Notes: a model not told the origin generated them from the sequence alone. DNA of 64,000 bases from Flavobacteriales bacterium (GCA_947502765.1 CANNBA010000010.1:1477-65476); one strand, 5' to 3'; positions 1 to 64,000 are shown, counted from the first letter of the stretch. Program-made: numbers and translations.

Positions 1-823
1 TTGGTCCCATTCCATTAAATGTAACAAAGCTAGCTGGATCCTGTAGAATAAGATAATTACCTAGTACCATAGCCGCTAGCATAGTAGCAACATAGGAGCC
101 AAATAAATCCGCTCCCATTCCAGCTACATCACCAACATTATCACCAACATTATCAGCAATAGTTGCAGGATTTCTTGGATCGTCCTCTGGAATTCCAGCT
201 TCAACTTTTCCTACTAAATCTGCACCAACATCAGCTGCTTTTGTATAAATACCTCCCCCTACTCTGGCAAATAATGCAATGCATTCTGCCCCTAGTGAAA
301 AACCAGCAAGAGTTTCAAGTATTACCATTAAGTCAGCGCCCTTGCCACCATTAATAACAAGAAATAAAAATATTGAGGAAAGTCCAAATACAGCCAATCC
401 AGCAACACCTAATCCCATTACTGTACCGCCTCTAAAAGCGACTTTCATAGCTTGAGGTAAACTCGTTTTTGCTGCCTCTGCTGTTCTAACGTTAGCTTTA
501 GTAGCAATACGCATTCCTATATTTCCTGCTAGAGCAGAAAAAACTGCACCAGTTACAAATGCAGCTACAATATACATTCCTGCTGGTATATAATTCATAG
601 CTGAAAGTATTCCCAGTACTGAACCGGCAATTACTACAAATACAGCTAACATTCTATATTCCGCTTTTAGAAAAGCCATTGCTCCAGCGGCAATATAACC
701 AGATATTTTTTGCATCTTTTCACTTCCTGCAGATTGCTTTTTAACCCATGATGACAAGTAAAGCATATACACTAAGCCTACCAATCCAAATACAGGTAAT
801 ATATAAATCAATTTTTCAGACAT
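1..823 (-). CDS. hppA: membrane-bound H+/Na+-translocating pyrophosphatase, N-terminal ~274 codons (rest of gene lies left of the window)
   Basis: Absent from the ORF track because it runs off the edge. My translation of the reverse complement from the ATG at 823-821 gives MSEKLIYILPVFGLVGLVYM... and includes ARVGGGIYTKAADVGADLVGKVEAGIPEDDPRNPATIADNVGDNVGDVAGMGADLF, the M-PPase signature. Confidence 0.9.
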   Translation of the reverse strand, partial: MSEKLIYILPVFGLVGLVYMLYLSSWVKKQSAGSEKMQKISGYIAAGAMAFLKAEYRMLAVFVVIAGSVLGILSAMNYIPAGMYIVAAFVTGAVFSALAGNIGMRIATKANVRTAEAAKTSLPQAMKVAFRGGTVMGLGVAGLAVFGLSSIFLFLVINGGKGADLMVILETLAGFSLGAECIALFARVGGGIYTKAADVGADLVGKVEAGIPEDDPRNPATIADNVGDNVGDVAGMGADLFGSYVATMLAAMVLGNYLILQDPASFVTFNGMGP

Positions 824-966
824 AATTTGTTATTTTTAGTTATTCCTTTTTTAAAAACGGGCACAAAAATAGTATTTTAAAACAAATCAAGTGATGTCAA
901 GCGATTTTATGTATTTTAAATCGCTATTTATCTTATTAAAAAGGCCTGTATTTAGTCTATTTTATC

Positions 967-974
967 TAAATTTG
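967..974 (+). promoter_or_regulatory. Bacteroidota-type -7 promoter motif (TAnnTTTG) upstream of etfB
   Basis: TAAATTTG lies 28 nt upstream of the ATG at 1003 and matches the TAnnTTTG consensus of Bacteroidota sigma-A promoters. Confidence 0.4.
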
Positions 975-1002
975 CAATCATTAATCTAAAAATACTTGTA
1001 GA

Positions 1003-1749
1003 ATGAATATTGTAGTTTGCATAAGTAGTGTCCCTGATACAACTGCAAAAATTAACTTTACTGATAATGGAAGCAAATTTGATGCTAGTGGAGTACAATT
1101 TGTAATTAATCCTTATGATGAATTTGGACTTACAAAAGCCATGATGCTCAAAGAGGCGATGGGAGGAAAAATAACCGTTATTACAGTAGGAGATGCAGCA
1201 GCAGAACCGGTAATAAGAAAAGCGTTAGCAATTGGAGCTGATGATGCAGTTAGAATTAACATGAATGCTAAAGATAGTTATTCAACAGCTATTGAAATTG
1301 CAAATTATTTAAAAACCAATCCTGCTGATTTAATTATTACTGGAAGAGAGTCAATCGATTATAACGGAGGAGCGGTAGGTGGAATGCTCGCAGAAATGCT
1401 TGACTTACCATTTATTAATGGGTGTAATGGATTGGATATTTCAGGAAATACAGCAAAAATTTCTAGAGAAATTGATGGTGGAAAAGAAAACATTTCAGCA
1501 AACCTCCCTTTTGTAATTGGCGGACAAAAAGGGTTGGTGCAAGAATCTGAACTTAGAATTCCTAATATGAGAGGCATTATGCAAGCAAGAACAAAGCCTT
1601 TACAGGTAATTGAATCATCAAATAATGAGAATTTAACAGCATCAATTAGTTTTATAAAACCTTCTGAAAAAGGAGCTTGCAAATTAGTGGCTTCTGATAA
1701 TGTAGCAGAGTTGGTTTCCTTACTACACAATGAAGCAAAAGTTATATAA
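1003..1749 (+). CDS. etfB: electron transfer flavoprotein beta subunit
   Basis: 248 aa. The N-terminus MNIVVCISSVPDTTAKINF... is typical of ETF-beta, and the gene sits directly upstream of etfA. Confidence 0.9.
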   Translation: MNIVVCISSVPDTTAKINFTDNGSKFDASGVQFVINPYDEFGLTKAMMLKEAMGGKITVITVGDAAAEPVIRKALAIGADDAVRINMNAKDSYSTAIEIANYLKTNPADLIITGRESIDYNGGAVGGMLAEMLDLPFINGCNGLDISGNTAKISREIDGGKENISANLPFVIGGQKGLVQESELRIPNMRGIMQARTKPLQVIESSNNENLTASISFIKPSEKGACKLVASDNVAELVSLLHNEAKVI

Positions 1750-1768
1750 TTAAAAGAATCTATAAAAA

Positions 1769-2713
1769 ATGTCAGTATTAGTATATACAGAAAGTTGGGA
1801 AGGAAATTTTAGAAAAAGTACTTATGAGGCTGTTTCTTACGCAAGTGAGACTGCCAAATTGTTAGGTACAGATGTTGTTGCACTTGCATTTGGAAATGAA
1901 AGTGATGACGAGCTGAAAAAATTAGGCAGCTATGGAGCCAATAAAGTATTAGCTACAAGTGGAATTGAGAAAGGAGATAGTAAAGCCGCAACTCAACTTT
2001 TTACATCTAATTCATCTGATGCAAACATCATCATTTTTGCAAGCACTTACACCTCAAAAATGATTGCGCCTAGATTAGCTGCAAAACTTAAAGCTGGAAT
2101 GGTATCTAATGTAATCAGTGTGCCATCTAGCACTTCTCCAATAAAAATTAAACGAAAAGCATTTTCTAGCAAAGCTGTTGAGAATACCGAAATTACTACA
2201 GAAAAAGCAATTATTATTTTAGCTCCGAATGCTTTTGGATTAGTGGAGTGCGGTGGCAACTGTAAAATAGAAAAAATTGAAGCAGGTAGTGATTCAAGTA
2301 TTACTGTTAATGGGCAAGAAATAGCAAGTGGCAAAGTATCTTTAGCTGAAGCTGAAATTATCGTTTCGGCAGGAAGAGGATTAAAAAGCCCAGAAAATTG
2401 GAAAATGATTGAAGAGCTAGCTGATTTATTGGGAGCTGCAACAGCATGCTCTAAGCCTGTATCCGATATTGGCTGGAGACCTCATAGTGAACATGTTGGT
2501 CAAACTGGGAAAGCAGTTGCTCCTAACCTTTACATTGCAATAGGAATTTCAGGTGCTATACAACATTTAGCAGGAGTTAATTCATCAAAAGTAATGGTTG
2601 CCATTAATACTGATCCTGAGGCTCCATTTTTTAAAGCAGCAGATTATGGTATAGTTGGAGATGCATTTACAGTTGTTCCTAAATTAATAGAAGAAATAAA
2701 AAAAATAAGATAA
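1769..2713 (+). CDS. etfA: electron transfer flavoprotein alpha subunit
   Basis: 314 aa. The C-terminal FAD-binding region reads PNLYIAIGISGAIQHLAGVNSSKVMVAINTDPEAPFFKAADYGIVGD. Confidence 0.9.
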   Translation: MSVLVYTESWEGNFRKSTYEAVSYASETAKLLGTDVVALAFGNESDDELKKLGSYGANKVLATSGIEKGDSKAATQLFTSNSSDANIIIFASTYTSKMIAPRLAAKLKAGMVSNVISVPSSTSPIKIKRKAFSSKAVENTEITTEKAIIILAPNAFGLVECGGNCKIEKIEAGSDSSITVNGQEIASGKVSLAEAEIIVSAGRGLKSPENWKMIEELADLLGAATACSKPVSDIGWRPHSEHVGQTGKAVAPNLYIAIGISGAIQHLAGVNSSKVMVAINTDPEAPFFKAADYGIVGDAFTVVPKLIEEIKKIR

Positions 2714-2714
2714 C

Positions 2715-3326
2715 TTGGATTTTGTTCAATTAGATATAGCCGCAATAAAGCAAAGTGACTCGCAAAACAATGCCTATGTATTACTATTGAATGAAACTGT
2801 TGGAAAAAGACAATTGCCAATTGTAATTGGCTGGTGTGAGGCAAGATCAATTGCTATAGCAATTGACGGAACAGAAGAGCCAGATAGGCCTCTAACTCAT
2901 GATTTATTTAAAACCATGGGAGATAAATTCAATATTACAGTTCAAAAAGTGATAATACACACCTTAATTGAAGGTATTTTTCATTCTTCTTTTCATTGTA
3001 AACACAAGATTACTGGTGAAGAAGTAGCAATTGACGCTCGAACTTCTGATGCCATTGCAATTGCCATAAGATATAGTTGTCCTATTTTTACTTATGAAGA
3101 TATCTTATCAAGAGCGGGCATTATTATTAACAGTGCTCGTGAAGATGATGAAGATGATAAAGATTTGAACCTTGAAGAAGAAGATGATAAAGTGGCAGAG
3201 CCTCAAGCAATGAACACTTTTAGTTTAGCAAAATTAAAAAAGCTTTTAACTAGAGCAATTGAAGATGAAGATTACGAGAAGGCATCTGAAATAAGAGACG
3301 AATTAAAAAAACGAAAAGGAAAATAA
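2715..3326 (+). CDS. bifunctional nuclease family (DUF151) protein with C-terminal UVR-like motif
   Basis: 203 aa. It contains AYVLLLNETVGKRQLPIVIGWCEARSIAIA, an acidic linker and a DYEKASEIRDELKKRKG tail. It needs a TTG start at 2715 because the etfA stop is at 2711-2713. Confidence 0.7.
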   Translation: MDFVQLDIAAIKQSDSQNNAYVLLLNETVGKRQLPIVIGWCEARSIAIAIDGTEEPDRPLTHDLFKTMGDKFNITVQKVIIHTLIEGIFHSSFHCKHKITGEEVAIDARTSDAIAIAIRYSCPIFTYEDILSRAGIIINSAREDDEDDKDLNLEEEDDKVAEPQAMNTFSLAKLKKLLTRAIEDEDYEKASEIRDELKKRKGK

Positions 3327-3329
3327 AAA

Positions 3330-4817
3330 ATGAAAAAAATCTACTTACTCATTGTTTTTTTTGGGCTTGCTTTTTTTTCATTTTCTCAAAATATTAGTGG
3401 CAATAAGGATACGATAAGAAATTATCAGATAAATGCTGATACAATATCTTTAGTTCTAAATGAAAACGAGAGTAATCTTGCTCTTACAAAAGAAGAGATA
3501 ATTCCGAAACCACTTGAAACATCAGGCATTACTATAAATTCTATTTTAAGAGGAATCTTAGGAATCTTTTCACTATTACTTATAGCATTTCTATTTAGCA
3601 GAAATCGAAAAGGAATTGATTGGGTATTAGTTGGAAAAGGATTAGGCATTCAAATACTATTTGCGCTTTTAATTCTTAAAGTTGCTTTTATTTCAACAGG
3701 ATTTGAATTTGTAGGCAAAATATTTACAAAGATAATCTCCTTTACTCAGGATGGAACCATGTTTCTTTTCAAGTCATTTGCATCAGGAGTGATTGAATCT
3801 CCTCTTGCCAACTTTGCCATAATGATTTTACCAACTGTGATATTCTTTTCGGCTCTAACATCACTTTTTTATTACTGGGGAGTTTTGCCTAAAATTGTTT
3901 ATGGATTTGCTTGGATAATGAAAAGAACCATGAAAATATCTGGGCCTGAAAGTGTAGCCGCAGCTGGAAATATATTTTTAGGACAAACAGAAGCTCCACT
4001 ACTAGTAAAACCTTATTTAAATAAAATGACCATGTCGGAAATGCTGTGTTTGATGACTGGGGGAATGGCAACCATTGCTGGAGGAGTTTTAGCAGCATAT
4101 ATCGGATTTTTAGGTGGAGACGATCCAGTACAACAAATAATTTTCGCCAAACATTTATTGGCTGCATCAGTTATGTCGGCACCAGCTGCTATTGTAGCGG
4201 CAAAAATGTTATTACCTGAAAAAGAAGCTTATGAAGAAAAATTAGAAGTAGCAAAAGCTGATATGGGAAGCAACGCATTGGAAGCAATATCTCAAGGGAC
4301 AACAGATGGATTAAGACTTGCAATAAATGTAGGGGCTATGTTATTGGTATTTATTGCCTTAATATCTATGGGAAATTACATATTATTAAAAGTTGGAGAT
4401 TGGACCTCTCTTAATCCTTGGATTGCAAGCAATACTAGATACACTGAACTTTCCTTTAACATGATTTTAGGCTATATTGGAGCCCCTATTGCTTGGCTTA
4501 TGGGTGTTTGTAAGCAGGATATGTTTTTAGTGGGGGAGCTACTTGGCGAAAAAACAGTATTGAACGAATTTGTGGCTTATGTATCTCTTGGTGAAATGAA
4601 AATGGCAGGAGCTTTTGTGGAGCAAAAATCAATAATTATAGCCACTTATATATTGTGTGGCTTTGCTAATTTTGCATCTATTGGGATACAAATTGGAGGT
4701 ATTGGTGCATTGGCCCCAAACAAAAGAGCTGATTTATCTAGATTAGGAATATTAGCTCTAATTGGAGGGACAGTTGCTTCTTTATTTACAGCTGTAATTG
4801 TAGGAATGTTAATTTAA
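3330..4817 (+). CDS. concentrative nucleoside transporter (NupC/CNT family)
   Basis: 495 aa polytopic membrane protein with GQTEAPLLVKPYL and MTGGMATIAGGVLAAYIGFLGG, which are typical of CNT family proteins. Confidence 0.8.
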   Translation: MKKIYLLIVFFGLAFFSFSQNISGNKDTIRNYQINADTISLVLNENESNLALTKEEIIPKPLETSGITINSILRGILGIFSLLLIAFLFSRNRKGIDWVLVGKGLGIQILFALLILKVAFISTGFEFVGKIFTKIISFTQDGTMFLFKSFASGVIESPLANFAIMILPTVIFFSALTSLFYYWGVLPKIVYGFAWIMKRTMKISGPESVAAAGNIFLGQTEAPLLVKPYLNKMTMSEMLCLMTGGMATIAGGVLAAYIGFLGGDDPVQQIIFAKHLLAASVMSAPAAIVAAKMLLPEKEAYEEKLEVAKADMGSNALEAISQGTTDGLRLAINVGAMLLVFIALISMGNYILLKVGDWTSLNPWIASNTRYTELSFNMILGYIGAPIAWLMGVCKQDMFLVGELLGEKTVLNEFVAYVSLGEMKMAGAFVEQKSIIIATYILCGFANFASIGIQIGGIGALAPNKRADLSRLGILALIGGTVASLFTAVIVGMLI

Positions 4818-4820
4818 CAA

Positions 4821-5615
4821 ATGCAGCAATACTTATATTTAATGAAGCGCGTGATGATGGAAGGCACGCTAAAAGCAGACCGAACAGGAACAGGAACTAA
4901 AAGTGTTTTTGGGCATCAAATGCGTTTTGATTTATCAGAGGGGTTTCCTTGTGTTACTACCAAAAAATTACATTTAAAATCCATCATTCACGAACTACTT
5001 TGGTTTTTAAAGGGAGACACCAATATCAAATACCTTAGAGAAAATGGAGTGCGAATTTGGGATGAATGGGCTGATGAAAATGGAGATTTAGGCCATGTTT
5101 ATGGTTATCAATGGAGATCTTGGCCTGCCCCTGATGGCAAACATATCGATCAAATCACTCAAGTGGTGGATACACTTAAAAAAAATCCGGACAGCAGAAG
5201 AATTATTGTGAGTGCTTGGAATGTGGGAGAAATTGAACAGATGGCCTTGCCTCCTTGTCATGCCTTTTTTCAGTTTTATGTTGCGAACGGAAAGCTTTCT
5301 TGCCAGTTATATCAAAGAAGTGCGGACATCTTTTTGGGAGTTCCTTTCAACATTGCTTCTTATGCCTTACTTACCATGATGATGGCTCAAGTTTGTAATT
5401 TGGAAGCTGGAGATTTTATTCATACATTGGGTGATGCCCATATTTACACCAATCATTTTGAGCAAACAGAACTACAACTCAACAGAGATTGTAAAAAATT
5501 ACCCACTATGAAAATCAACCCAAATGTGAAAAGTATTTTTGATTTCACCATTGATGATTTTGAATTAGTTGATTATGAATGTCACCCTCATATTAAAGGA
5601 AAAGTAGCAATCTAA
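4821..5615 (+). CDS. thyA: thymidylate synthase
   Basis: 264 aa with [35 protein letters not shown], and [11 protein letters not shown] containing the catalytic Cys. Confidence 0.95.
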
Positions 5616-56334: not shown

Positions 56335-56826
56335 TCATGCCCAGCCCTCTCTATCTAACGACCTATATTGAATGGCTTCTGCCAGGTGTTCAGTAGTTAT
56401 TTTTTCTGATTTTTCTAAGTCGGCAATAGTTCGTGAAACTTTTAATATTCTATCATATGCTCTTGCTGATAAATTGAGTTTATCCATTGCTATTTTTAGC
56501 ATTCTTTGACTTTTTTCATCTAATCCGCAAAACTCTTGCAACTGCTTAGTACTCATTTGAGCGTTAGCATGTACTCCTTTAATTTTTTGATACCTCTCTT
56601 CCTGTATAATCCTAGCGCTAATTACTCTTTCTCTAATAGCTGCGCTACACTCTCCTTTTTTCTTGGCTGCCAATTCATCAAAACTCACGGGAGTAACCTC
56701 AACATGCAAATCAATCCTGTCCAAAAGGGGTCCAGATTTTTTATTCAAGTATTTTTGCACCATTCCAGGAGGGCATAAGCAGTCTTTATCAGGATGGTTG
56801 TAATAACCACAGGGACAAGTAACTAT
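56335..56826 (-). pseudogene. comM: C-terminal ~160-codon fragment of comM/yifB (Mg-chelatase-like AAA+ competence protein)
   Basis: CPCGYYNHPDKDCLCPPGMVQKYLNKKSGPLLDRIDLHVEV...ARAYDRILKVSRTIADLEKSEKITTEHLAEAIQYRSLD is the conserved ComM/YifB C-terminal module. In the family as I recall it, this module starts after roughly residue 340 of a protein of about 500 aa. The upstream 30 codons of the track ORF (MYLIIFIRLNKRL...) look unrelated, and no AAA+ ATPase part follows. Confidence 0.75.
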
Positions 56827-56872
56827 CTTTATAAATACCTCTAAATTAATTAGTTGATAAATAATTAAATAT

Positions 56873-56893
56873 TTTAGTCGTTTGTTTAGTCGT
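56873..56893 (+). repeat. two direct copies of TTTAGTCGT, 12-nt period, next to the comM breakpoint
   Basis: TTTAGTCGT occurs at 56873-56881 and 56885-56893. An inverted partial copy (GACTAAAA, reverse complement TTTTAGTC) lies at 57076-57083. Confidence 0.5.
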
Positions 56894-57120
56894 ATGAATA
56901 TGATTAAATACATCTTATCATGAAACTACAAAATCAAAATAGACTTAAAAAATGTAAAAGAGATAAGTTATTATTCTTTTTCAAGAATTGTATTAAAAGT
57001 ACTCCGTTGTATATACTCCCATAAAAAATCCACCTTCACAAAAAACAAATTTGAAAATAAATATATAAGAGTATGGACTAAAACATTTCGTTCCAGTTCA
57101 ATAAAAAAACTTACTCTAAT

Positions 57121-57408
57121 ATGAATAAGAAAAAACACATTCAAACAAACTTTTTCAGGTTTCTACTTGAAAAGTATTCAAATGACCACAACACTCAAAC
57201 TGACATTGAATTTGATGATGAGGTAGAAAACCCTGACGAGGAGACCAATGATGAATTACCAAAACGACTTAAACGAATGGTAGAAATTGAAGATGAGGAC
57301 CCTGAAAGAACCGAAGATGATGATGTCATAGACGAACTTGTCAAAGAATACAAAAAAATAAAAAAACAATATGAAAATCGTAGGATACCTGTCAGAAGAA
57401 AACGATAA
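57121..57408 (+). CDS. hypothetical highly charged small protein
   Basis: 95 aa with an acidic core (DDEVENPDEETNDE, EDEDPERTEDDD) and a basic tail. No family was recognised. Confidence 0.3.
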   Translation: MNKKKHIQTNFFRFLLEKYSNDHNTQTDIEFDDEVENPDEETNDELPKRLKRMVEIEDEDPERTEDDDVIDELVKEYKKIKKQYENRRIPVRRKR

Positions 57409-57628
57409 ACTTTATGATTTTGATACCCTAAGAAGACTTATAGGGTCCTCAAAATCAAAGTTACATCGTGACCTTCACAAACTTCAAAATCGTGAATTTG
57501 TGAAGTATAAAAACCAATTTCTTTATACAGAAAGAACAATGTTTGAGATAATGGAGAAAGTTCTGTTTGAGAGATTGGATAAAATTCAACATGAACATTA
57601 TGAACTTTCAAATGATAAGAAACATTGA
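57371..57628 (+). CDS. hypothetical small protein, possible winged-helix/HTH DNA-binding
   Basis: 85 aa. LYDFDTLRRLIGSSKSKLHRDLHKLQNREFVKYKNQFLY has the spacing of an HTH followed by a wing. It overlaps the upstream ORF by 38 nt in the +1 frame. Confidence 0.3.
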   Translation: MKIVGYLSEENDKLYDFDTLRRLIGSSKSKLHRDLHKLQNREFVKYKNQFLYTERTMFEIMEKVLFERLDKIQHEHYELSNDKKH

Positions 57629-57749
57629 AGACAGAATTTCCAAGAATAGAAAGAAATTAAATGAAGAAACGGATAATAAAAAGAAACAAATATTGAGGTT
57701 GAAAATACAGATTGATGAGATTAAAGTAAAACTTGAAAGATTGAAGTAA
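57567..57749 (+). CDS. hypothetical coiled-coil peptide
   Basis: 60 aa, or about 45 aa from the ATG at 57612. It has a heptad-like KKQILRLKIQIDEIKVKLERLK and again lies in the next +1 frame. Confidence 0.2.
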   Translation: MRDWIKFNMNIMNFQMIRNIEDRISKNRKKLNEETDNKKKQILRLKIQIDEIKVKLERLK

Positions 57750-57870
57750 TAAATTGAGAGTTCAAGTCTCTCCAAATAAAACTTGATATGAAAAACCCTT
57801 ACCAATATTGATAATCTGTAATCCTTAAATAATAAGGGTTAGTTGTTACTATATATAAAATCCAGTTAAT

Positions 57871-58452
57871 ATGACCATTAAAGAAACCTACCTAAGAAAG
57901 GTAAATAACCTCATCAAAGAACCTTACATTTATATATGTATCAAACCAATAAGAGGAATGAAATCACTGAACCAATTCAGGTTTTTAATTAAGAAAATGT
58001 TCAGAGAGGTTTCTAAACTCTATGGTGTGTATGAACCTCACTTACACCTAAAATATATTTCAGTAATTGAAATCAACAAATCCATTATTCTGGGAGATAA
58101 CTTATTTATGGGTAAGTTTTCTAAAACATCTAAATCTATTAATAGAAATGGTAGTGTTTCCACCAACTATTTCGATGTTACAGATAACATTGATGAATTA
58201 GGTTTTCACACACACATATTTCTACAAAAGAGATTTCATAACAATGAAATTTCTCATACTTTATTGAAACAATATATCTCCAATTGTTTTGACAAAGTGG
58301 GTATTGAAATAAATTATTATGAAAAGACAGATGAGGTTTATTCAATGAATAATTTTATCCATTATCATACAAAACAACTTCACTATCTGAATTCAGACTT
58401 TGTAATTTACAACACAACAAAATCGTTAATCCCCATAAACATTGAACAATAG
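57871..58452 (+). CDS. hypothetical protein with HUH-like motif (possible Rep/relaxase-type endonuclease)
   Basis: 193 aa. GFHTHIFLQ fits His-hydrophobic-His, and FIHYHTKQLHY about 55 aa downstream supplies candidate catalytic Tyr residues. This is motif-level evidence only. Confidence 0.4.
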   Translation: MTIKETYLRKVNNLIKEPYIYICIKPIRGMKSLNQFRFLIKKMFREVSKLYGVYEPHLHLKYISVIEINKSIILGDNLFMGKFSKTSKSINRNGSVSTNYFDVTDNIDELGFHTHIFLQKRFHNNEISHTLLKQYISNCFDKVGIEINYYEKTDEVYSMNNFIHYHTKQLHYLNSDFVIYNTTKSLIPINIEQ

Positions 58453-58486
58453 TCACATCAAGGATTTGATTGTTTAAATGTCGTTT

Positions 58487-58494
58487 TATTTTTG
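58487..58494 (+). promoter_or_regulatory. -7 promoter motif TAnnTTTG upstream of hsdM
   Basis: TATTTTTG lies 32 nt upstream of the ATG at 58527. TTG triplets at 58466-58472 could serve as the -33 element. Confidence 0.4.
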
Positions 58495-58526
58495 TATTTT
58501 TCCACCGAATATTAATTTACAAAAAG

Positions 58527-60242
58527 ATGTCTAAACACCAAGAACTTTCAAATTTTATATGGGGTATATGTGATGATGTATTGAGAGGACTTTTCAAACC
58601 TCACGAATACGGAGATGTAATACTTCCCTTTGTAGTATTAAGAAGATTAGATTGTGTTTTGGAACCACAAAAAGACAAAGTCTTAGAATTATATAACCAG
58701 TATAAAGACAAAGTCAATGACCCCACTCCAATTATATTGGATAAAATAGGAACTACTTTTTTTAATACTTCAAAGTATGACCTAAGAAGATTGAAACAAG
58801 ACCCACAAAATATTTACCTCAACTTTAATAATTACCTCAATGGATATGATGAGAATGTTAGAGAAATCATTGAGAATTTTCAATTAGAGAAACCCATTGA
58901 AAAATTAAACAAGAATAATCGTTTGTTTCTTTTGGTGGATCGGATGACTGAGGTTGATTTACACCCTGATAAAATAGATAATCGTTTAATGGGTCAAATC
59001 TATGAAGAGTTACTTCGTAGATTTTCTGAGATGTCTAATGAAACCAGTGGTGACCATTATACTCCGAGAGATGTTGTGAGACTTTTAGTTTCTCTATTGT
59101 TTTCGGGAGAAGAAGAAAACTTAAAAGGAAAAGGTGTTATTAGAAGTTTGTTTGACCCTTGTAGTGGAACTGGGGGACTTCTAACAATGGGTAAGGAATG
59201 GGTAAGAGAAAACATAAACCCTGATGTTGAATTTCTTCTATTTGGTCAAGAATTAAATCCTCAAACATATTCAATCTGTAAATCAGATATGATGTTGTTA
59301 GGTGAAAACTCAAACAACATCAAGGGACCAAGTTCGTCTCTATCTGATGATAGATTTCAAGGAATGAAGTTTGATTATTCTATAACAAATCCCCCATTTG
59401 GGGTGAGTTGGAAGTCTGAACAAGAATTCGTTGAAAACGAAAGTCAAAATCCTCATGGTAGATTTTTTGTCGGAACACCAAGGGTTTCCGATGGTTCATT
59501 ATTGTTCTTACAACACCTCATCTCAAAAATGGAAGATAAGGGAAGTAGAATAGGAATTGTGTTTAACGGGTCCCCATTATTTAGTGGTGATAGTGGTTCG
59601 GGAGAAAGTGAAATTAGAAAATGGATTATTGAAAACGATTGGTTGGAGTGTGTAGTTTCTTTACCTGACCAACTTTTCTTCAACACTGGTATTTCTACAT
59701 ATTTATGGATTGTAACTAACAAAAAGAAAAAGAATAGAAAAGGAAAGGTTCAATTAATAGATGGTAGTAGTTTTTATGTTCCTATGAAAAAGAGTTTAGG
59801 TTCAAAGAGAAAAATGATTTCAGAAAGTCAATTAACAGAACTGACCAATTCTTATAGTAAGTTTATAGAAAACAAACATTCAAAGATTTTTCCAAATCAG
59901 TATTTCGGATATACAAAAGTAACAATTGAACAACCTACAAAAGATGAAAAAGGAAAGGTTCTTAAAGATAAATCAGGAAATATAAAACCAAATAATTCTC
60001 TAAGAGATTACGAAAGAGTTCCATTGTTAGAGAATGTAGATGAGTATTTTGAAAGAGAAGTAAAACCTCATATTCCTGATAGTTGGATGGATAGAGATAA
60101 AGACAAGGTAGGATATGAAATCAATTTTTCGAAGTATTTCTATCAATATAAATCGTTGAGGTCTTTGAAAGAAATTACCCAAGAATTGATTAAAATAGAA
60201 AAAGAAAGTGAAGGTTTATTCAATCAAATTATTAATGAATAA
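58527..60242 (+). CDS. hsdM: type I restriction-modification system methyltransferase subunit
   Basis: Start at ATG 58527 (MSKHQELSNFIWGICDDVLRG, the HsdM N-terminal pattern). It has SAM motif I FDPCSGTGGLL and catalytic motif IV ITNPPFG. Confidence 0.9.
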   Translation: MSKHQELSNFIWGICDDVLRGLFKPHEYGDVILPFVVLRRLDCVLEPQKDKVLELYNQYKDKVNDPTPIILDKIGTTFFNTSKYDLRRLKQDPQNIYLNFNNYLNGYDENVREIIENFQLEKPIEKLNKNNRLFLLVDRMTEVDLHPDKIDNRLMGQIYEELLRRFSEMSNETSGDHYTPRDVVRLLVSLLFSGEEENLKGKGVIRSLFDPCSGTGGLLTMGKEWVRENINPDVEFLLFGQELNPQTYSICKSDMMLLGENSNNIKGPSSSLSDDRFQGMKFDYSITNPPFGVSWKSEQEFVENESQNPHGRFFVGTPRVSDGSLLFLQHLISKMEDKGSRIGIVFNGSPLFSGDSGSGESEIRKWIIENDWLECVVSLPDQLFFNTGISTYLWIVTNKKKKNRKGKVQLIDGSSFYVPMKKSLGSKRKMISESQLTELTNSYSKFIENKHSKIFPNQYFGYTKVTIEQPTKDEKGKVLKDKSGNIKPNNSLRDYERVPLLENVDEYFEREVKPHIPDSWMDRDKDKVGYEINFSKYFYQYKSLRSLKEITQELIKIEKESEGLFNQIINE

Positions 60243-60244
60243 TA

Positions 60245-61174
60245 ATGAAATTATACAACATAAAAGATAAAAAGTTACTTCCTGTTTTTTCTGATAATTT
60301 TAAGTTGGAAAAAGAAATTCAAGAATTAGTTGAAAACAATTTGAAAGAGTTGTTCAACCTTGAATTGGTAAAAACCGAATTCACTATTCGAAATTTCAGA
60401 ATAGACACATTGTGTTTTAATAAAGAAAACAAATCTTTTGAAATAATAGAATATAAAAGAGAAAGAAACTTTTCGGTAATAGACCAAGGTTACACATATC
60501 TTTCATTAATGTTAAATAATAAATCTGATTTCATTTTAGAGTATAATGAAAACAATAATGAGACATTGAAAAGAGATGATATTGATTGGACCCAGTCAAG
60601 AGTTAGGTTTATTTCACCTCACTTTACTGAATATCAAAAGAACTCAATTAATTTCAAAGATGTTCCTTTTGAACTATGGGAGATAAAAAAATACGATAAT
60701 AGTATGATTGGTTTAATTCAACATAAGACCTCATCAGAAGAAAGTATTTCAACAATTCAAACTGATACGGAGAATTTAGTTAGTTCGGTTACACGAGAAA
60801 TTAAAGTTTATTCCGAAGAATATCACTTCACTAAAAACAAGAAAAGAGATGAAAGGGTAATAGAACTATATAAATCAATAAAAGAACGAATAACAAATTT
60901 AGGTGACGATATTGATATTATTCCAAGAAAGGAATACGTTGGATTTAGAAGAAAAAGACCTTTCACTGATATAGTGTTTTATACTGAACATCTCCGAATT
61001 TTGATTAATATGAAGAAAGGTGAATTAGATGACCCTAAACATATTTGTAAAGATATGAGTGTTCAGGGACACTGGGGAAATGGAGATTATGAAATAAGAT
61101 TAACTCCCCAAGATGACCTTGAATATACAATGTTTCTCATTCACCAATCTTATAAAAAACAAGATAAAGTATGA
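60245..61174 (+). CDS. hypothetical protein: N-terminal PD-(D/E)XK-like nuclease motif plus C-terminal DUF5655-like region
   Basis: 309 aa. The order E24 ... RID54TL ... E69-Y-K71 (FEIIEYK) fits the D...(D/E)xK arrangement. The C-terminus YVGFRRKRPFTDIVFYTEHLRILI...GHWGNGDYEIRL...FLIHQSY resembles DUF5655. It lies 2 nt after the hsdM stop, and its own stop overlaps the hsdS start (ATGA). Confidence 0.6.
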   Translation: MKLYNIKDKKLLPVFSDNFKLEKEIQELVENNLKELFNLELVKTEFTIRNFRIDTLCFNKENKSFEIIEYKRERNFSVIDQGYTYLSLMLNNKSDFILEYNENNNETLKRDDIDWTQSRVRFISPHFTEYQKNSINFKDVPFELWEIKKYDNSMIGLIQHKTSSEESISTIQTDTENLVSSVTREIKVYSEEYHFTKNKKRDERVIELYKSIKERITNLGDDIDIIPRKEYVGFRRKRPFTDIVFYTEHLRILINMKKGELDDPKHICKDMSVQGHWGNGDYEIRLTPQDDLEYTMFLIHQSYKKQDKV

Positions 61175-62463
61175 GAAAGACCTATTCGAAATATAAGTCT
61201 TCGGGAGTTGAATGGATTGGTGAGATACCTGAAAATTGGGATTTTATTCGATTAAAACACGAATATAAAATCCAAAAAGGAAAAATACCTAAAATTATCT
61301 TTGAAGAACACAAAGAAGACCATGTTCCCTATCTATCAATGGATGTAATCAGAGGTTCTCAAACAATTGGTTATGTTCATAATGAAGATGGGGTTTATGT
61401 TTATAAAGGACAGGTCTTGATTTTATGGGACGGTTCTAATTCGGGAGAAATATTTAAGGTTGAAAAGGAAGGAATACTCTCTTCAACAATGGGTGTTTTA
61501 AACAAAATAGGAAACCAATTAAATGAAGATTTTTCATTTTATCAGTTAAAATCATTTGAACCTGAAATTAGAAATAACACCAATGGTATGGGAATTCCTC
61601 ATGTCGATGGTTCCTATGTTCGTAGTTTACCTCTATTTGTCCCCCCCCTTACCGAACAAGAACAGATTGTAAAATATTTAGACGAGAAGACTACACAGAT
61701 TGACAACCTAATATCTATAACAGAAGACAAAATAGACCTCTTAAAACAAAAGAGAACCTCACAGATTAATCAAGTTATAACAAAGGGTTTGAATAAAGAA
61801 GTTAAACTAAAAGATAGTGGGGTTGAATGGATTGGAAAAATACCTAATCATTGGGATAGAGTTTGTGTAAAAAGACTTGTATCAACAAAATTGTGTGATG
61901 GACCACATATTACCCCAAACTTTATTGACACTGGTGTTCCATTTATTTCTGTCGAAAGTATCAAAGATGATAAAATTGATTTTGATTTTTTAAGAGGATA
62001 TATTAGTAAGGAGGATGACATTGAATTTTCAAAAAAAACAAAACCTGAAAAAGATGATATTTTACTTGTTAAATCGGGTTCTACAACTGGTAAGGTTACA
62101 ATAGTTGAAACTGATATTGATTTTAATATATGGTCCCCTCTTTGTCTGATAAGAACAAAAAAAGAAAAAGTTTTACCAAGATTTGTTTTTTTATCTATGA
62201 AAAGTGATTTCTTTCAAATCACTATTCAACAATCTTGGAGTTTTGGAACTCAACCTAATATTGGAATGGGTGTTATTGAGAATTTATTCTTAGTAATTCC
62301 ACCAATTAAGGAACAGAAGGATATAATTAGTTTTATAGATAAAGAAAACAAAAAAATAGATAATTTGATTTCAATAGAAAAACGAAGAGTTGAAACATTA
62401 AAAGAATACAGACAAAGTTTGATTTCAGAAGTTATTACAGGTAAAATAAAAGTTATTGATTAA
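61171..62463 (+). CDS. hsdS: type I restriction-modification system specificity subunit (two TRDs)
   Basis: 430 aa with an internal duplication. SGVEWIGEIPENWD pairs with SGVEWIGKIPNHWD, and LTEQEQIVKYLDEKTTQIDNLIS pairs with IKEQKDIISFIDKENKKIDNLIS. Each half is a TRD followed by a conserved helix. Confidence 0.9.
   Translation: MRKTYSKYKSSGVEWIGEIPENWDFIRLKHEYKIQKGKIPKIIFEEHKEDHVPYLSMDVIRGSQTIGYVHNEDGVYVYKGQVLILWDGSNSGEIFKVEKEGILSSTMGVLNKIGNQLNEDFSFYQLKSFEPEIRNNTNGMGIPHVDGSYVRSLPLFVPPLTEQEQIVKYLDEKTTQIDNLISITEDKIDLLKQKRTSQINQVITKGLNKEVKLKDSGVEWIGKIPNHWDRVCVKRLVSTKLCDGPHITPNFIDTGVPFISVESIKDDKIDFDFLRGYISKEDDIEFSKKTKPEKDDILLVKSGSTTGKVTIVETDIDFNIWSPLCLIRTKKEKVLPRFVFLSMKSDFFQITIQQSWSFGTQPNIGMGVIENLFLVIPPIKEQKDIISFIDKENKKIDNLISIEKRRVETLKEYRQSLISEVITGKIKVID
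61641..61648 (+). repeat. C8 homopolymer inside hsdS, at the end of TRD1
   Basis: gtc ccc ccc ctt encodes V-P-P-L. This is the longest C/G run I noticed in this AT-rich window. Confidence 0.9.
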
Positions 62464-62466
62464 ATT

Positions 62467-63105
62467 ATGAATATTGATAAAGACTTATTGGAAAAGATGT
62501 TTCCAAATTCATCAAGTAAAAAAAACACCTCGTTAAAACTTCAAAAATATGAAGATTTGGTTGATTTTATTCACGACTATCATTCTGATAGAGTGAATTG
62601 GAAACTTCCTATTTCAATTATGGGATTGAACCTTGAACATATTCAAAAAAGAAATTGTTACATAACATTGATTTTTAATCCAACCAAAGAACAAGAACCA
62701 ATAATAGAGAAGATGAAAGATTTGTCTGAACACCAGGGTGGTCATTGGTTTGGTGTAAGAATTTTTACTTTCGAAATAGTAAAACAAATATTAAATGGTT
62801 TTGATAAAAATAAATGGGAAAAACTACCTATATCAATCCCAGTTATCAAATTGAGTGAATTGGAAAAGAAAGAGATTGAAACACTATTGGGAAAAGAGGG
62901 TGGTCCTCATTCAACGATAGAGTTTTTAATTAAAAATATTAATGAAGACAATAAAAATCTTATTGTATCTCAGATATATCACATTTTAGAAGTAAGAATG
63001 ACAAGTGTTAATAGTATTCATGAACTCTTATATTATAAGAATATCCGTATTGACTATGAATTAGTAAATAACAAAGAACATTATGACGATGAAAAGTCAA
63101 ATTAA
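62467..63105 (+). CDS. hypothetical protein (no recognisable motif) between hsdS and hsdR
   Basis: 212 aa. It starts 3 nt after the hsdS stop and ends 12 nt before the hsdR start. I saw no TM segment, P-loop or nuclease motif. Confidence 0.55.
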   Translation: MNIDKDLLEKMFPNSSSKKNTSLKLQKYEDLVDFIHDYHSDRVNWKLPISIMGLNLEHIQKRNCYITLIFNPTKEQEPIIEKMKDLSEHQGGHWFGVRIFTFEIVKQILNGFDKNKWEKLPISIPVIKLSELEKKEIETLLGKEGGPHSTIEFLIKNINEDNKNLIVSQIYHILEVRMTSVNSIHELLYYKNIRIDYELVNNKEHYDDEKSN

Positions 63106-63117
63106 ATAAATGAGAAA

Positions 63118-64000
63118 ATGAATTACACTGAAAAAAACTTAGAAGACCATATTGAAACAAACCTACATAAAGTTGGTTTCAAGTCTTTGTTATATACTGA
63201 GTATGACAGAGTGAATTGTGTAGTTTCCTCAGACCTAATTCAATTTATAAAAGAAACACAAATTGATGTTTATGAAAGATTATTTGAACAATATGGTTCA
63301 GATACTGACACCAAACTCATTTTAAGACTTAATAACGAGATTTCAAGTCGTGGGGTTATAGATGTTATCAGAAAAGGAATTAAAGACCGAGGTTGTCACT
63401 TTTCACTTGTTTATTTTGAACCAAAGAGTGGTCTTAATCCTGAACATCAAGAACTTTATCTAAAAAATAGAGTTACCCTAATTCGACAAGTTCATTATTC
63501 TTCTAAGAACCAAAACTCATTGGATATGGTTTTGTTCATCAATGGTCTTCCAATAATTACAATGGAATTGAAGAACCAACTGACTGGACAAACAATTTTA
63601 GATAGTGAAAAACAATACAGATACGATAGAGATCCAAATGAACCATTATTTCAATTCAAAAGGGTATTAGTTCATTTTTGTTGTGATAATGATAGAGTAT
63701 CTATGACAACAAGATTGATGGGTGGAAAAACAAAGTTTTTACCTTACAATAAAGGAATAGAAAATCCTATAAACCCAAGTGGTTTGAAGACATCTTATTT
63801 GTGGGAAGAGATACTTACAAAAGAAAGTTTATTAGATATACTTGAAAACTTTGTTCATGTTTCAGTTGAAACCGACAAAGACTTTGACCCTAAAATTGGT
63901 AAGGTAGTAGAAAAGAAAAAAGAACTCTTAGTTTTTCCAAGATACCACCAACTTGATGTAATCAGGAAATTAAGAATTGATGTTAAAACAAAAGGTGTTG
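63118..64000 (+). CDS. hsdR: type I restriction endonuclease subunit R, N-terminal ~294 codons (continues beyond window)
   Basis: Not in the track because it is open at the edge. Translation from ATG 63118 gives MNYTEKNLEDHIETNL...SLDMVLFINGLPIITMELKNQLTGQTI...FPRYHQLDVIRKL. This is the HsdR N-terminal PD-(D/E)XK nuclease region (D..ELK) leading into helicase motif Q. Confidence 0.85.
   Translation, partial: MNYTEKNLEDHIETNLHKVGFKSLLYTEYDRVNCVVSSDLIQFIKETQIDVYERLFEQYGSDTDTKLILRLNNEISSRGVIDVIRKGIKDRGCHFSLVYFEPKSGLNPEHQELYLKNRVTLIRQVHYSSKNQNSLDMVLFINGLPIITMELKNQLTGQTILDSEKQYRYDRDPNEPLFQFKRVLVHFCCDNDRVSMTTRLMGGKTKFLPYNKGIENPINPSGLKTSYLWEEILTKESLLDILENFVHVSVETDKDFDPKIGKVVEKKKELLVFPRYHQLDVIRKLRIDVKTKGV

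Follow-up and report, generated by a model that had tools for sequence, protein, structure and literature searches.

In this Flavobacteriales bacterium, whose genome is small, the comM gene very probably holds two precise landing sites for mobile elements, both of them occupied here by three site-specific elements, and a deletion has been added to the insertions. The gene, which encodes a DNA-uptake helicase that drives branch migration in natural transformation, lies in two pieces that are separated by 17,219 bp of foreign DNA, and ~70 of its codons have been lost. We have analyzed a window of 64,000 nucleotides, which corresponds to positions 1477-65476 of contig C10 in a 1.63-Mb assembly of 23 contigs with about 32.6% G+C, and followed the locus beyond the window end as L006 (C10 57501-77500). 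Coordinates convert as L006 = window - 56024 and C10 = window + 1476.

RESULTS

comM survives as two pieces without its middle

The part of comM that lies in the window is the following:

56335-56818, minus strand: comM 3' fragment, last 160 codons from CPCG to the stop, equal to residues 352-512 of intact ComM

The reference for the comM alignment was the 512-aa intact ComM of a genome of the same family (G012), the closest intact one fetched. Against it, homology extended from C-P-C-G (residue 352) to the stop, over 160 codons with 78% identity. The fragment is contained in a 192-aa ORF (window 56335-56913, minus strand) whose first 32 residues are unrelated to ComM, the break being at window 56818/56819. 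An earlier note on this DNA had reported that only the C-terminal ~160 codons are present in the window and that homology starts abruptly at CPCG, at about 56816-56826; the number agrees with ours and the break falls within that range. The 192-aa ORF matched the whole Pfam Mg_chelatase_C profile (PF13335, positions 1-94 of 94, E 1.8e-35), and the AAA+ Mg_chelatase profile was matched in its last quarter only (153-205 of 207, E 7.1e-13).

The note had also predicted an insertion, with the missing ~350 N-terminal codons lying to the right. The location was correct: an N-terminal piece was found 17.2 kb to the right, beyond the window end, on the same contig and strand as the C-terminal piece (C10 75516-76352, minus strand) and with integrases in between, which supported an insertion and not a simple deletion. 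The number was not, since this piece has 279 codons and codons about 280-350 are absent from the assembly. Its ORF of 291 aa (C10 75477-76352) matches ComM up to residue 279 (...RPFRSPHHTIS) and then diverges. In a whole-assembly Pfam search, the piece was recovered with ChlI (PF13541, E 1.7e-47) and with Mg_chelatase (PF01078) positions 1-90 of 207 (E 7.9e-37), so that ChlI and the first 90 positions of the AAA+ profile are located at C10 75501-76295. What the whole assembly lacks is the stretch between the two pieces (profile positions about 91-152, G012 residues 280-351), and a tblastn search of the whole assembly with this comM middle, which includes the Walker B stretch VLFLDE, gave no match at E values up to 100. 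A continuous comM with a complete AAA+ core (Walker B and sensor region) was thus not found. The gene is a split pseudogene and, because the Walker B region is gone, it is irreversibly inactivated.

A tyrosine-integrase element at the CPCG codons

The comM-C break is one end of A1, a 13.0-kb integrative element of the tyrosine-integrase type with a type I restriction-modification (R-M) cargo; this is the junction that the earlier note had seen. A1 contains a 674-aa integrase, a small second tyrosine recombinase, the type I R-M operon and four conserved small genes. Its features within the window are listed below.

56807-56818: att core copy 1 (A1 attR), CCACAGGGACAA, the reverse complement of TTGTCCCTGTGG, spanning comM codons C-P-C-G
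56819-64000: left 7.2 kb of A1, which runs on to C10 71328, 5,852 bp past the window end
56873-56892: TTTAGTCGT present twice, candidate arm-type sites for binding of the A1 integrase
57121-57408, plus strand: o95, acidic 95-aa A1 backbone protein, 95% identical to y95 of L023 and 42% to z93 of L026
57371-57628, plus strand: o85, small winged-helix protein, weak match to Pfam HTH_34 (E 7.6e-4)
57567-57749, plus strand: o60, small backbone ORF, 90% identical to y52 of L023 and 58% to z41 of L026
57871-58452, plus strand: o193, conserved backbone protein with invariant G-x-H-x-H and Y-H-x-K-Q (alignment A5)
58470-60242, plus strand: hsdM, type I R-M methylase, A1 cargo (Pfam N6_Mtase E 4.6e-58, HsdM_N E 6.4e-26)
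60245-61174, plus strand: DUF5655/nuclease-like passenger gene in the R-M operon (Pfam DUF5655 E 1.2e-15)
61171-62463, plus strand: hsdS, specificity subunit (Pfam Methylase_S E 2.8e-28, two stretches)
62467-63105, plus strand: 212-aa ORF between hsdS and hsdR, no Pfam match
63118-64000, plus strand: 5' part of hsdR (Pfam HSDR_N, ResIII, SWI2_SNF2 and T1R_D3-like); the whole gene encodes 985 aa and ends at C10 67551

This order bears out the earlier description, in which AT-rich DNA upstream of the break leads into orphan ORFs and an R-M operon; the ORFs are small and the operon is of type I. The suggestion that the break is an element boundary with a matching repeat elsewhere was also supported. 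The 12-bp core TTGTCC[C/G]TGTGG occurs exactly twice in the 1.63-Mb genome, at window 56807-56818 (C10 58283) and at C10 71329-71340, and the two copies form direct repeats at both element ends, 13,046 bp apart. Together with its reverse complement, TTTAGTCG has 19 copies genome-wide, three of which lie within 130 bp of the two cores, on both arms; similar CGACTAAA-type motifs were present on both arms in relatives such as L026 and L044.

By blastn and tblastn, A1 was collinear with the relatives L023, L024, L026 and L044, with the backbone kept and the cargo swapped. Homology to all relatives begins exactly at the core (L006 13843), continues through the integrase and the 205-aa second tyrosine recombinase, and resumes in the four small backbone genes adjoining comM-C, the cargo in between being different. 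The o95 relatives y95 and z93 likewise adjoin the comM-C junction. Conserved in A-type elements down to about 45% identity, o85 was also found in the large-serine-recombinase (LSR) element C described below, and we regard it as a candidate excisionase or regulator. For o193, the AF2 model had a pLDDT of 79 and the fold search returned just generic alpha/beta matches; the protein may be HUH-like, as judged by motif only.

The A1 integrase matched PF00589 (E 6.4e-13) and PF13102, and its catalytic set (R320, K344/K348, H613, R616, H641 and Y650) was invariant in 22 sequences. With the integrase intact and both cores present, A1 could still excise; no circular A-type contig was found among the loci fetched. 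The 205-aa recombinase (L006 10960-11577, C10 68460-69077) consists of the catalytic domain only and is 98% identical in L023 and L044. Since the cargo of these two is a type II R-M system, the protein is part of the A1 backbone and not an hsdS-shuffling recombinase.

A search of a large protein collection gave 71 homologues of the A1 integrase. The family is visible mainly in metagenome contigs, and an order-wide search of 301 genomes returned 2 distant relatives only. We have compared the contexts of L023-L028 and L042-L048 (integrase identity 38-88%), which comprise metagenome contigs and named genomes, among them Bizionia sediminis KCTC 42587 and Flavobacterium, Chryseobacterium and Bacteroidetes MAGs. 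Wherever a fetched locus had sufficient flank (about a dozen loci), the integrase came right after comM residues about 355-359, and the other end, where on the contig, abutted comM at residues about 343-349. All fetched loci with flanks have their junctions at comM residues about 345-359. This landing site, which we have named site 2, consists of the codons M-N-P-C-P-C-G around codon 350. The same core was read directly at both junctions of relatives, as direct repeats; in L026, a simple 7-kb element, the two comM pieces sum to the whole gene and each end carries a copy of ATGAATCCTTG[C/T]CCTTGCGG. Scanning metagenome contigs with a degenerate core pattern returned 2 loci, both of them canonical attL. 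The cargo of the family is type I R-M here, SacI-like R-M in L023 and L044, and DpnII R-M in L026.

An LSR element at HHTIS-GA

The earlier note had assumed one element, with its other end at the far junction. This assumption failed: the far junction is the att site of a different element, B, which belongs to the LSR type, and a fragment of a third element lies between the two. B lands at site 1, the GA within the Asp codon (codon 280) that directly follows H-H-T-I-S.

The last island gene, o202 (L006 17377-17985, C10 74877-75485), had 38 homologues, most of them on contigs of about 5.6-5.9 kb. Those contigs are circular permutations of one gene set, and element B normally measures about 5.7 kb. 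The set encodes a 590-aa LSR, a small ORF, a resolvase (small serine recombinase) of 198 aa, an MvaI/BcnI endonuclease, a C protein, an N4/N6 methylase and o202. The B relatives L031 and L035 assemble as circles, as given by their exact terminal overlaps of 69 and 127 bp, and both carry an intact attP. The attP palindrome, CTTCCACTTTAACAC-N15-GTGTTAAAGTGGAAG, was read from L031, L032 and L035. In L033 and L034, B is integrated in comM with the junction CACCATCTCA-GA-TGTTATT..., the attB being ...CACCATCTCA-GA-CATCGGG... and the attP ...CTATGAAG-GA-TGTTATTG.... The junction of B with comM-N in our genome, ...ACCATTTCG-GA-AATCGTTATGTTAATGTGGAAG (GA-AATCGTT...), has the register of L033; as read at L006 17992-18023 it is CTTCCACATTAACATAACGATT-TC-CGAAATGG.

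The B copy studied here is a remnant. It is collinear with its relatives from L006 14747 to the junction only, where it is joined canonically to the comM N-piece. The LSR (Resolvase, Recombinase and Zn_ribbon_recom domains) and the small ORF are missing and one att site has been lost; the 590-aa LSR is present in the relatives L031-L035, whose DNA is 80-88% identical. The MvaI/BcnI-type endonuclease gene (L006 15460-16204, C10 72960-73704) is a pseudogene: one frameshift interrupts it at about codon 31, and the rest keeps 94-97% identity to an intact relative. The C protein and the N4/N6 methylase are intact, which leaves an orphan methylase.

Two sub-lineages of B differ in the sense in which the central attP GA stands with respect to their genes (L032 vs. 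L035), and they sit in comM in opposite orientations (L030 3703-3740 vs. L033 6587-6620). The opposite orientation of L030 would be expected if the central dinucleotide sets the polarity.

Site 1 is used by other elements as well. A second LSR family, C (L038-L041, with a 7.3-kb unit), has a crossover identical to that of B, and its member L039 repeats with a 7,294-bp period, indicating a circular form. In L023, the DNA to the left of a comM middle fragment (positions 1-5440) encodes an NgoFVII-type R-M system, a 206-aa resolvase and three ORFs without assignment; its end is at the same GA crossover but has another arm sequence, and its integrase would lie past the contig end. Judging from this end, the L023 element is probably a third lineage at site 1. 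Neither relatives of the LSR nor relatives of the tyrosine integrase were found in the viral contig collection, and a virion-packaged satellite was thus considered unsupported.

The o202 protein has an N-terminal HTH-like region and an invariant GGGKGKGG loop, and H129-I-H131 and the distal Y177 were invariant in 24 sequences. Its AF2 model (pLDDT 84) gave as top Foldseek matches the nuclease domains of AAV Rep, pMV158 RepB and circovirus Rep, with weak scores (E about 1e-2, TM about 0.36). This weak structural support, together with the invariant motifs, suggests that o202 may be HUH-Rep-like. We also considered whether o193 and o202 could mark two copies of one element; the two proteins have no significant similarity and belong to different families.

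A fragment of a third element between A1 and B

Between A1 and B, directly beyond the A1 integrase-side core, lies a piece of 0.9 kb (L006 13826-14756) that we have named A2. It contains a 206/216-aa serine recombinase ("Ser216"), a terminator hairpin, an arm with the ATGACTAT palindrome, and a core. The exact pattern of the arm palindrome had 0 matches in metagenome contigs. The whole piece was 91.4% identical to four contigs (L060-L063), in which the same arm and core run into the comM-C of two hosts (...TTTCC-TTGTCCGTGTGG-CTACCATAACC...). Just downstream of the Ser216 gene is a 10-bp tandem repeat, (CGATTACAAC)x5, at L006 13956-14015 (C10 71456-71515). These same closest relatives have only about three copies, of the variant unit GAAACCGATT, and the copy number of the repeat therefore varies. 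A 21-nt direct repeat (L006 13930 and 17225) was examined as a pair of nested att sites and discarded: its copies belong to a methylase 3' end and a terminator hairpin, and the real boundaries are elsewhere.

At the joint of A2 with A1 (C10 71340/71341), the A2 arm is followed by CCTTGTCCGTGTGG and then by the integrase arm of A1; L060 has the same left half, and the right half is the canonical attL of L043. Since the A2 end lies directly beyond the A1 integrase-side core, A2 and A1 would be integrated in tandem at one core, a point that we hold to be highly probable as part of the overall explanation. The integrase of A2 is itself absent here, and A2 is assigned to the tyrosine-integrase type from its relatives, to which it would belong. 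L045 and L048 have the same cargo module as L060, with a Ser216-like gene at the comM-C end. This shared block comprises an EcoRI-like methylase, a GmrSD/HNH nuclease, a small ORF and a 206-aa resolvase, with 72-80% nucleotide identity (L038 7184-10621, L045 13611-16482, L048 9564-12827 and L060 1-3339). It is present in the LSR element C at site 1 as well as in tyrosine-integrase elements at site 2, those of Bizionia sediminis (L045) and of a Flavobacterium MAG (L048).

On the other side of A2, the B homology sets in at L006 14747 and the A2 homology extends as far as 14756, which puts the joint of B with A2 at about C10 72246-72256. The joint lies in a roughly 20-bp motif, T(T/A)TACT(T/C)TAAAT(C/A)(G/T)GTGA, that is common upstream of both resolvase genes. 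The motif is found about 75-105 bp upstream of these genes, as TTTACTTAAATCGTGTGAAG in B and as TATACTCTAAATATGTGA in A2-type elements, and in the same orientation on the chromosome. The two outermost joints are at C10 75513-75516 (B with comM-N) and C10 58294/58295 (A1 with comM-C).

The continuity of the foreign DNA would also agree with a single 17-kb composite island, inserted once at CPCG, with a later, unrelated deletion trimming ~70 codons from the N-terminal part of comM. The block between the comM pieces is indeed unbroken, and its left junction is a genuine att site. Nevertheless, we consider a single island very unlikely. Its right junction has, base for base, the register in which independent B elements are attached to comM by their LSR (attP arm, GA, comM), and B relatives are known both as separate circles of ~5.7 kb and as separate insertions. 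Moreover, the second core copy is located inside the block, exactly where close relatives show comM-N sequence, and the 0.9-kb piece matches the comM-C-side end of other elements.

The three unusual joints (A2 with A1, B with A2, and B with comM-N) rest on one assembly, which raises the possibility of a chimera, in which strains with different comM elements would have been stitched into an artificial array. The assembly consists of 23 contigs and could stem from metagenome binning, and many related elements co-occur in freshwater metagenomes. Still, such an artefact appears improbable to us. The sequence in common at the joints is only 10-14 bp, which we judged to be probably too short for an assembler mis-join; the flanks, with an M42 peptidase on one side and DsbD on the other, are syntenic with those of relatives; and the relative L023 has a comparable two-element array on one contig.

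Proposed history of the locus

The reading that we favor, two landing sites with three elements and a deletion, would have the following steps. A-type elements would have entered site 2, at the CPCG codons, leaving A2 and A1 in tandem, and B would have entered site 1, HHTIS-GA, by crossover at the GA. A deletion would then have occurred between the similar roughly 20-bp motifs, one upstream of each small serine-recombinase gene, in direct orientation. It would have removed the LSR end of B, comM codons about 280-350 and most of A2, with B and A2 stranded as the outcome. We infer this deletion because recombination between the motifs would excise exactly what is missing, and it was probably one between resolvase-associated motifs, as the position of the joint suggests. 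The insertion order and the deletion mechanism, either resolvase-catalysed or by short homology, are deduced from the end-points only. L023 has a layout of the undeleted type, in which an HHTIS-GA element and an A-type element (88% identical to A1) flank a comM middle piece of 95 aa.

Insertion into comM could in principle serve as a reversible switch, with excision rebuilding the gene when competence is needed, as for the skin element in sigK or the comK prophage of Listeria. LSR elements have circular forms, and in the simple insertions L026, L033 and L038, which represent both families, the comM pieces sum to the whole gene and the cores are intact, so that precise excision would restore comM. 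For the locus studied here, we find a switch hardly credible. The assembly lacks the ~70 codons with Walker B, and element B is without an integrase, so that comM cannot be restored; no link of excision to any signal was seen; and other species of the genus are without comM altogether, which argues for its dispensability here.

comM in related genomes

ComEC and DprA are intact in this genome. The genus has three other species (L057, G001:C32; L058, G002:C63; L059, G003:C12), in which we have examined the interval from DsbD to the M42 peptidase, and none of them has a functional comM. The losses took three forms, namely a 210-bp remnant with residues 1-56 fused to 492-509, a clean deletion, and a 258-aa ORF in place of the gene. 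Close relatives sharing the same truncated arrangement, the finding that according to the earlier note would speak against an insertion, were thus looked for, and comM had been lost in three different ways instead.

Other comM alterations were seen elsewhere in the order. In G287:C4 (159034-196104), comM is interrupted near residue 196-202 by 35.5 kb, and an integrase with 31% identity to that of A1 lies next to the insertion. In G036:C33 (73871-89776), comM pieces 1-128 and 283-510 lie 14.8 kb apart. G298:C57 (10263-16204) has an intact comM and an extra copy of residues 364-512 about 4 kb downstream.

DISCUSSION

In freshwater and marine Flavobacteriales, two unrelated recombinase classes each have a base-precise landing site in comM, 70 codons apart. 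The locus shows how comM elements accumulate in one gene, trade R-M and other defence genes, and degenerate side by side. The split comM found here fits the comM loss in the sister species. The attP/attB pairs defined for several new LSRs and for the long tyrosine integrase are candidate tools.

A further, tentative proposal, which we regard as possible but rather doubtful, is that recombinases of the Res198 and Ser216 types and the roughly 20-bp motif constitute a module-exchange system that operates across comM elements with unrelated integrases. The motif may then be the recombination site of the small serine recombinases. Module exchange of this kind would explain both the cargo block shared by LSR and tyrosine-integrase elements and the fusion of B with A2 exactly at the motif. 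If true, co-residence in one gene would be a route for shuffling defence cargo between element families.

Comparison with known systems

Arrays formed by tandem accretion at a shared att site are represented by the ICE/CIME arrays of Streptococcus thermophilus and by tandem islands at tRNA or tmRNA genes. A2 and A1 would likewise stand head to tail at one core, with an internal junction that joins the A2 arm to the integrase-side arm of A1. The differences are that the shared site is inside a protein-coding gene here, and that a second site, at a distance of 70 codons, has been taken by a third element unrelated to these two, with a probable deletion fusing two of the three.

AbaR islands belong to the Tn7-like transposons: they encode transposition genes and are flanked by a short duplication of the target site. 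The earlier note had drawn an analogy with them, which held for the target gene and not for the mechanism. No transposase or transposition-ATPase Pfam match was obtained among the island ORFs scanned, and a Tn7-like reading was rejected; the ends at our locus are recombination cores or att half-sites, and ~70 target codons were lost at comM instead of a target-site duplication being formed. The resistance islands of this type in comM of Acinetobacter baumannii (PMC11441513) have in common with the present locus the target gene and the consequence, loss of ComM function.

In Gammaproteobacteria, integrase-bearing MGEs disrupt comM in Aggregatibacter, Mannheimia, Francisella, Pseudomonas and Acinetobacter, and such comM elements have been interpreted as defending themselves against curing by transformation (Croucher et al. 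2016, PMC4774983). The elements described here are also site-specific at an orthologous, conserved comM position across genera. They differ in the host phylum, in carrying R-M or other defence cargo, and in their integrase, an unusually long (about 660-aa) tyrosine recombinase of the Bacteroidota type with a SAM_5 domain.

Mg-chelatase-like/ComM (YifB) genes are the targets of 12.4% of the predicted site-specific LSRs, and the targets of LSRs show an enrichment of competence genes (Durrant et al. 2022, PMC10083194). Like the LSR elements of that study, B and C are small and LSR-driven, with a palindromic attP and a 2-bp crossover inside comM, and the left-hand element of L023 is probably of this kind as well; the copy of B studied here differs in having lost its LSR and one att site. 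We have found no description of the GA-after-HHTIS site or of these Flavobacteriales lineages in the literature, a search that the data tables of Durrant et al. lay outside. The elements at this locus hence belong to an already known phenomenon, comM as a target of mobile elements, and leave the established picture unchanged. Less ordinary is that elements with recombinases of unrelated classes have occupied two precise sites side by side, and so are the putative tandem array and the probable fusion at a resolvase-associated motif.
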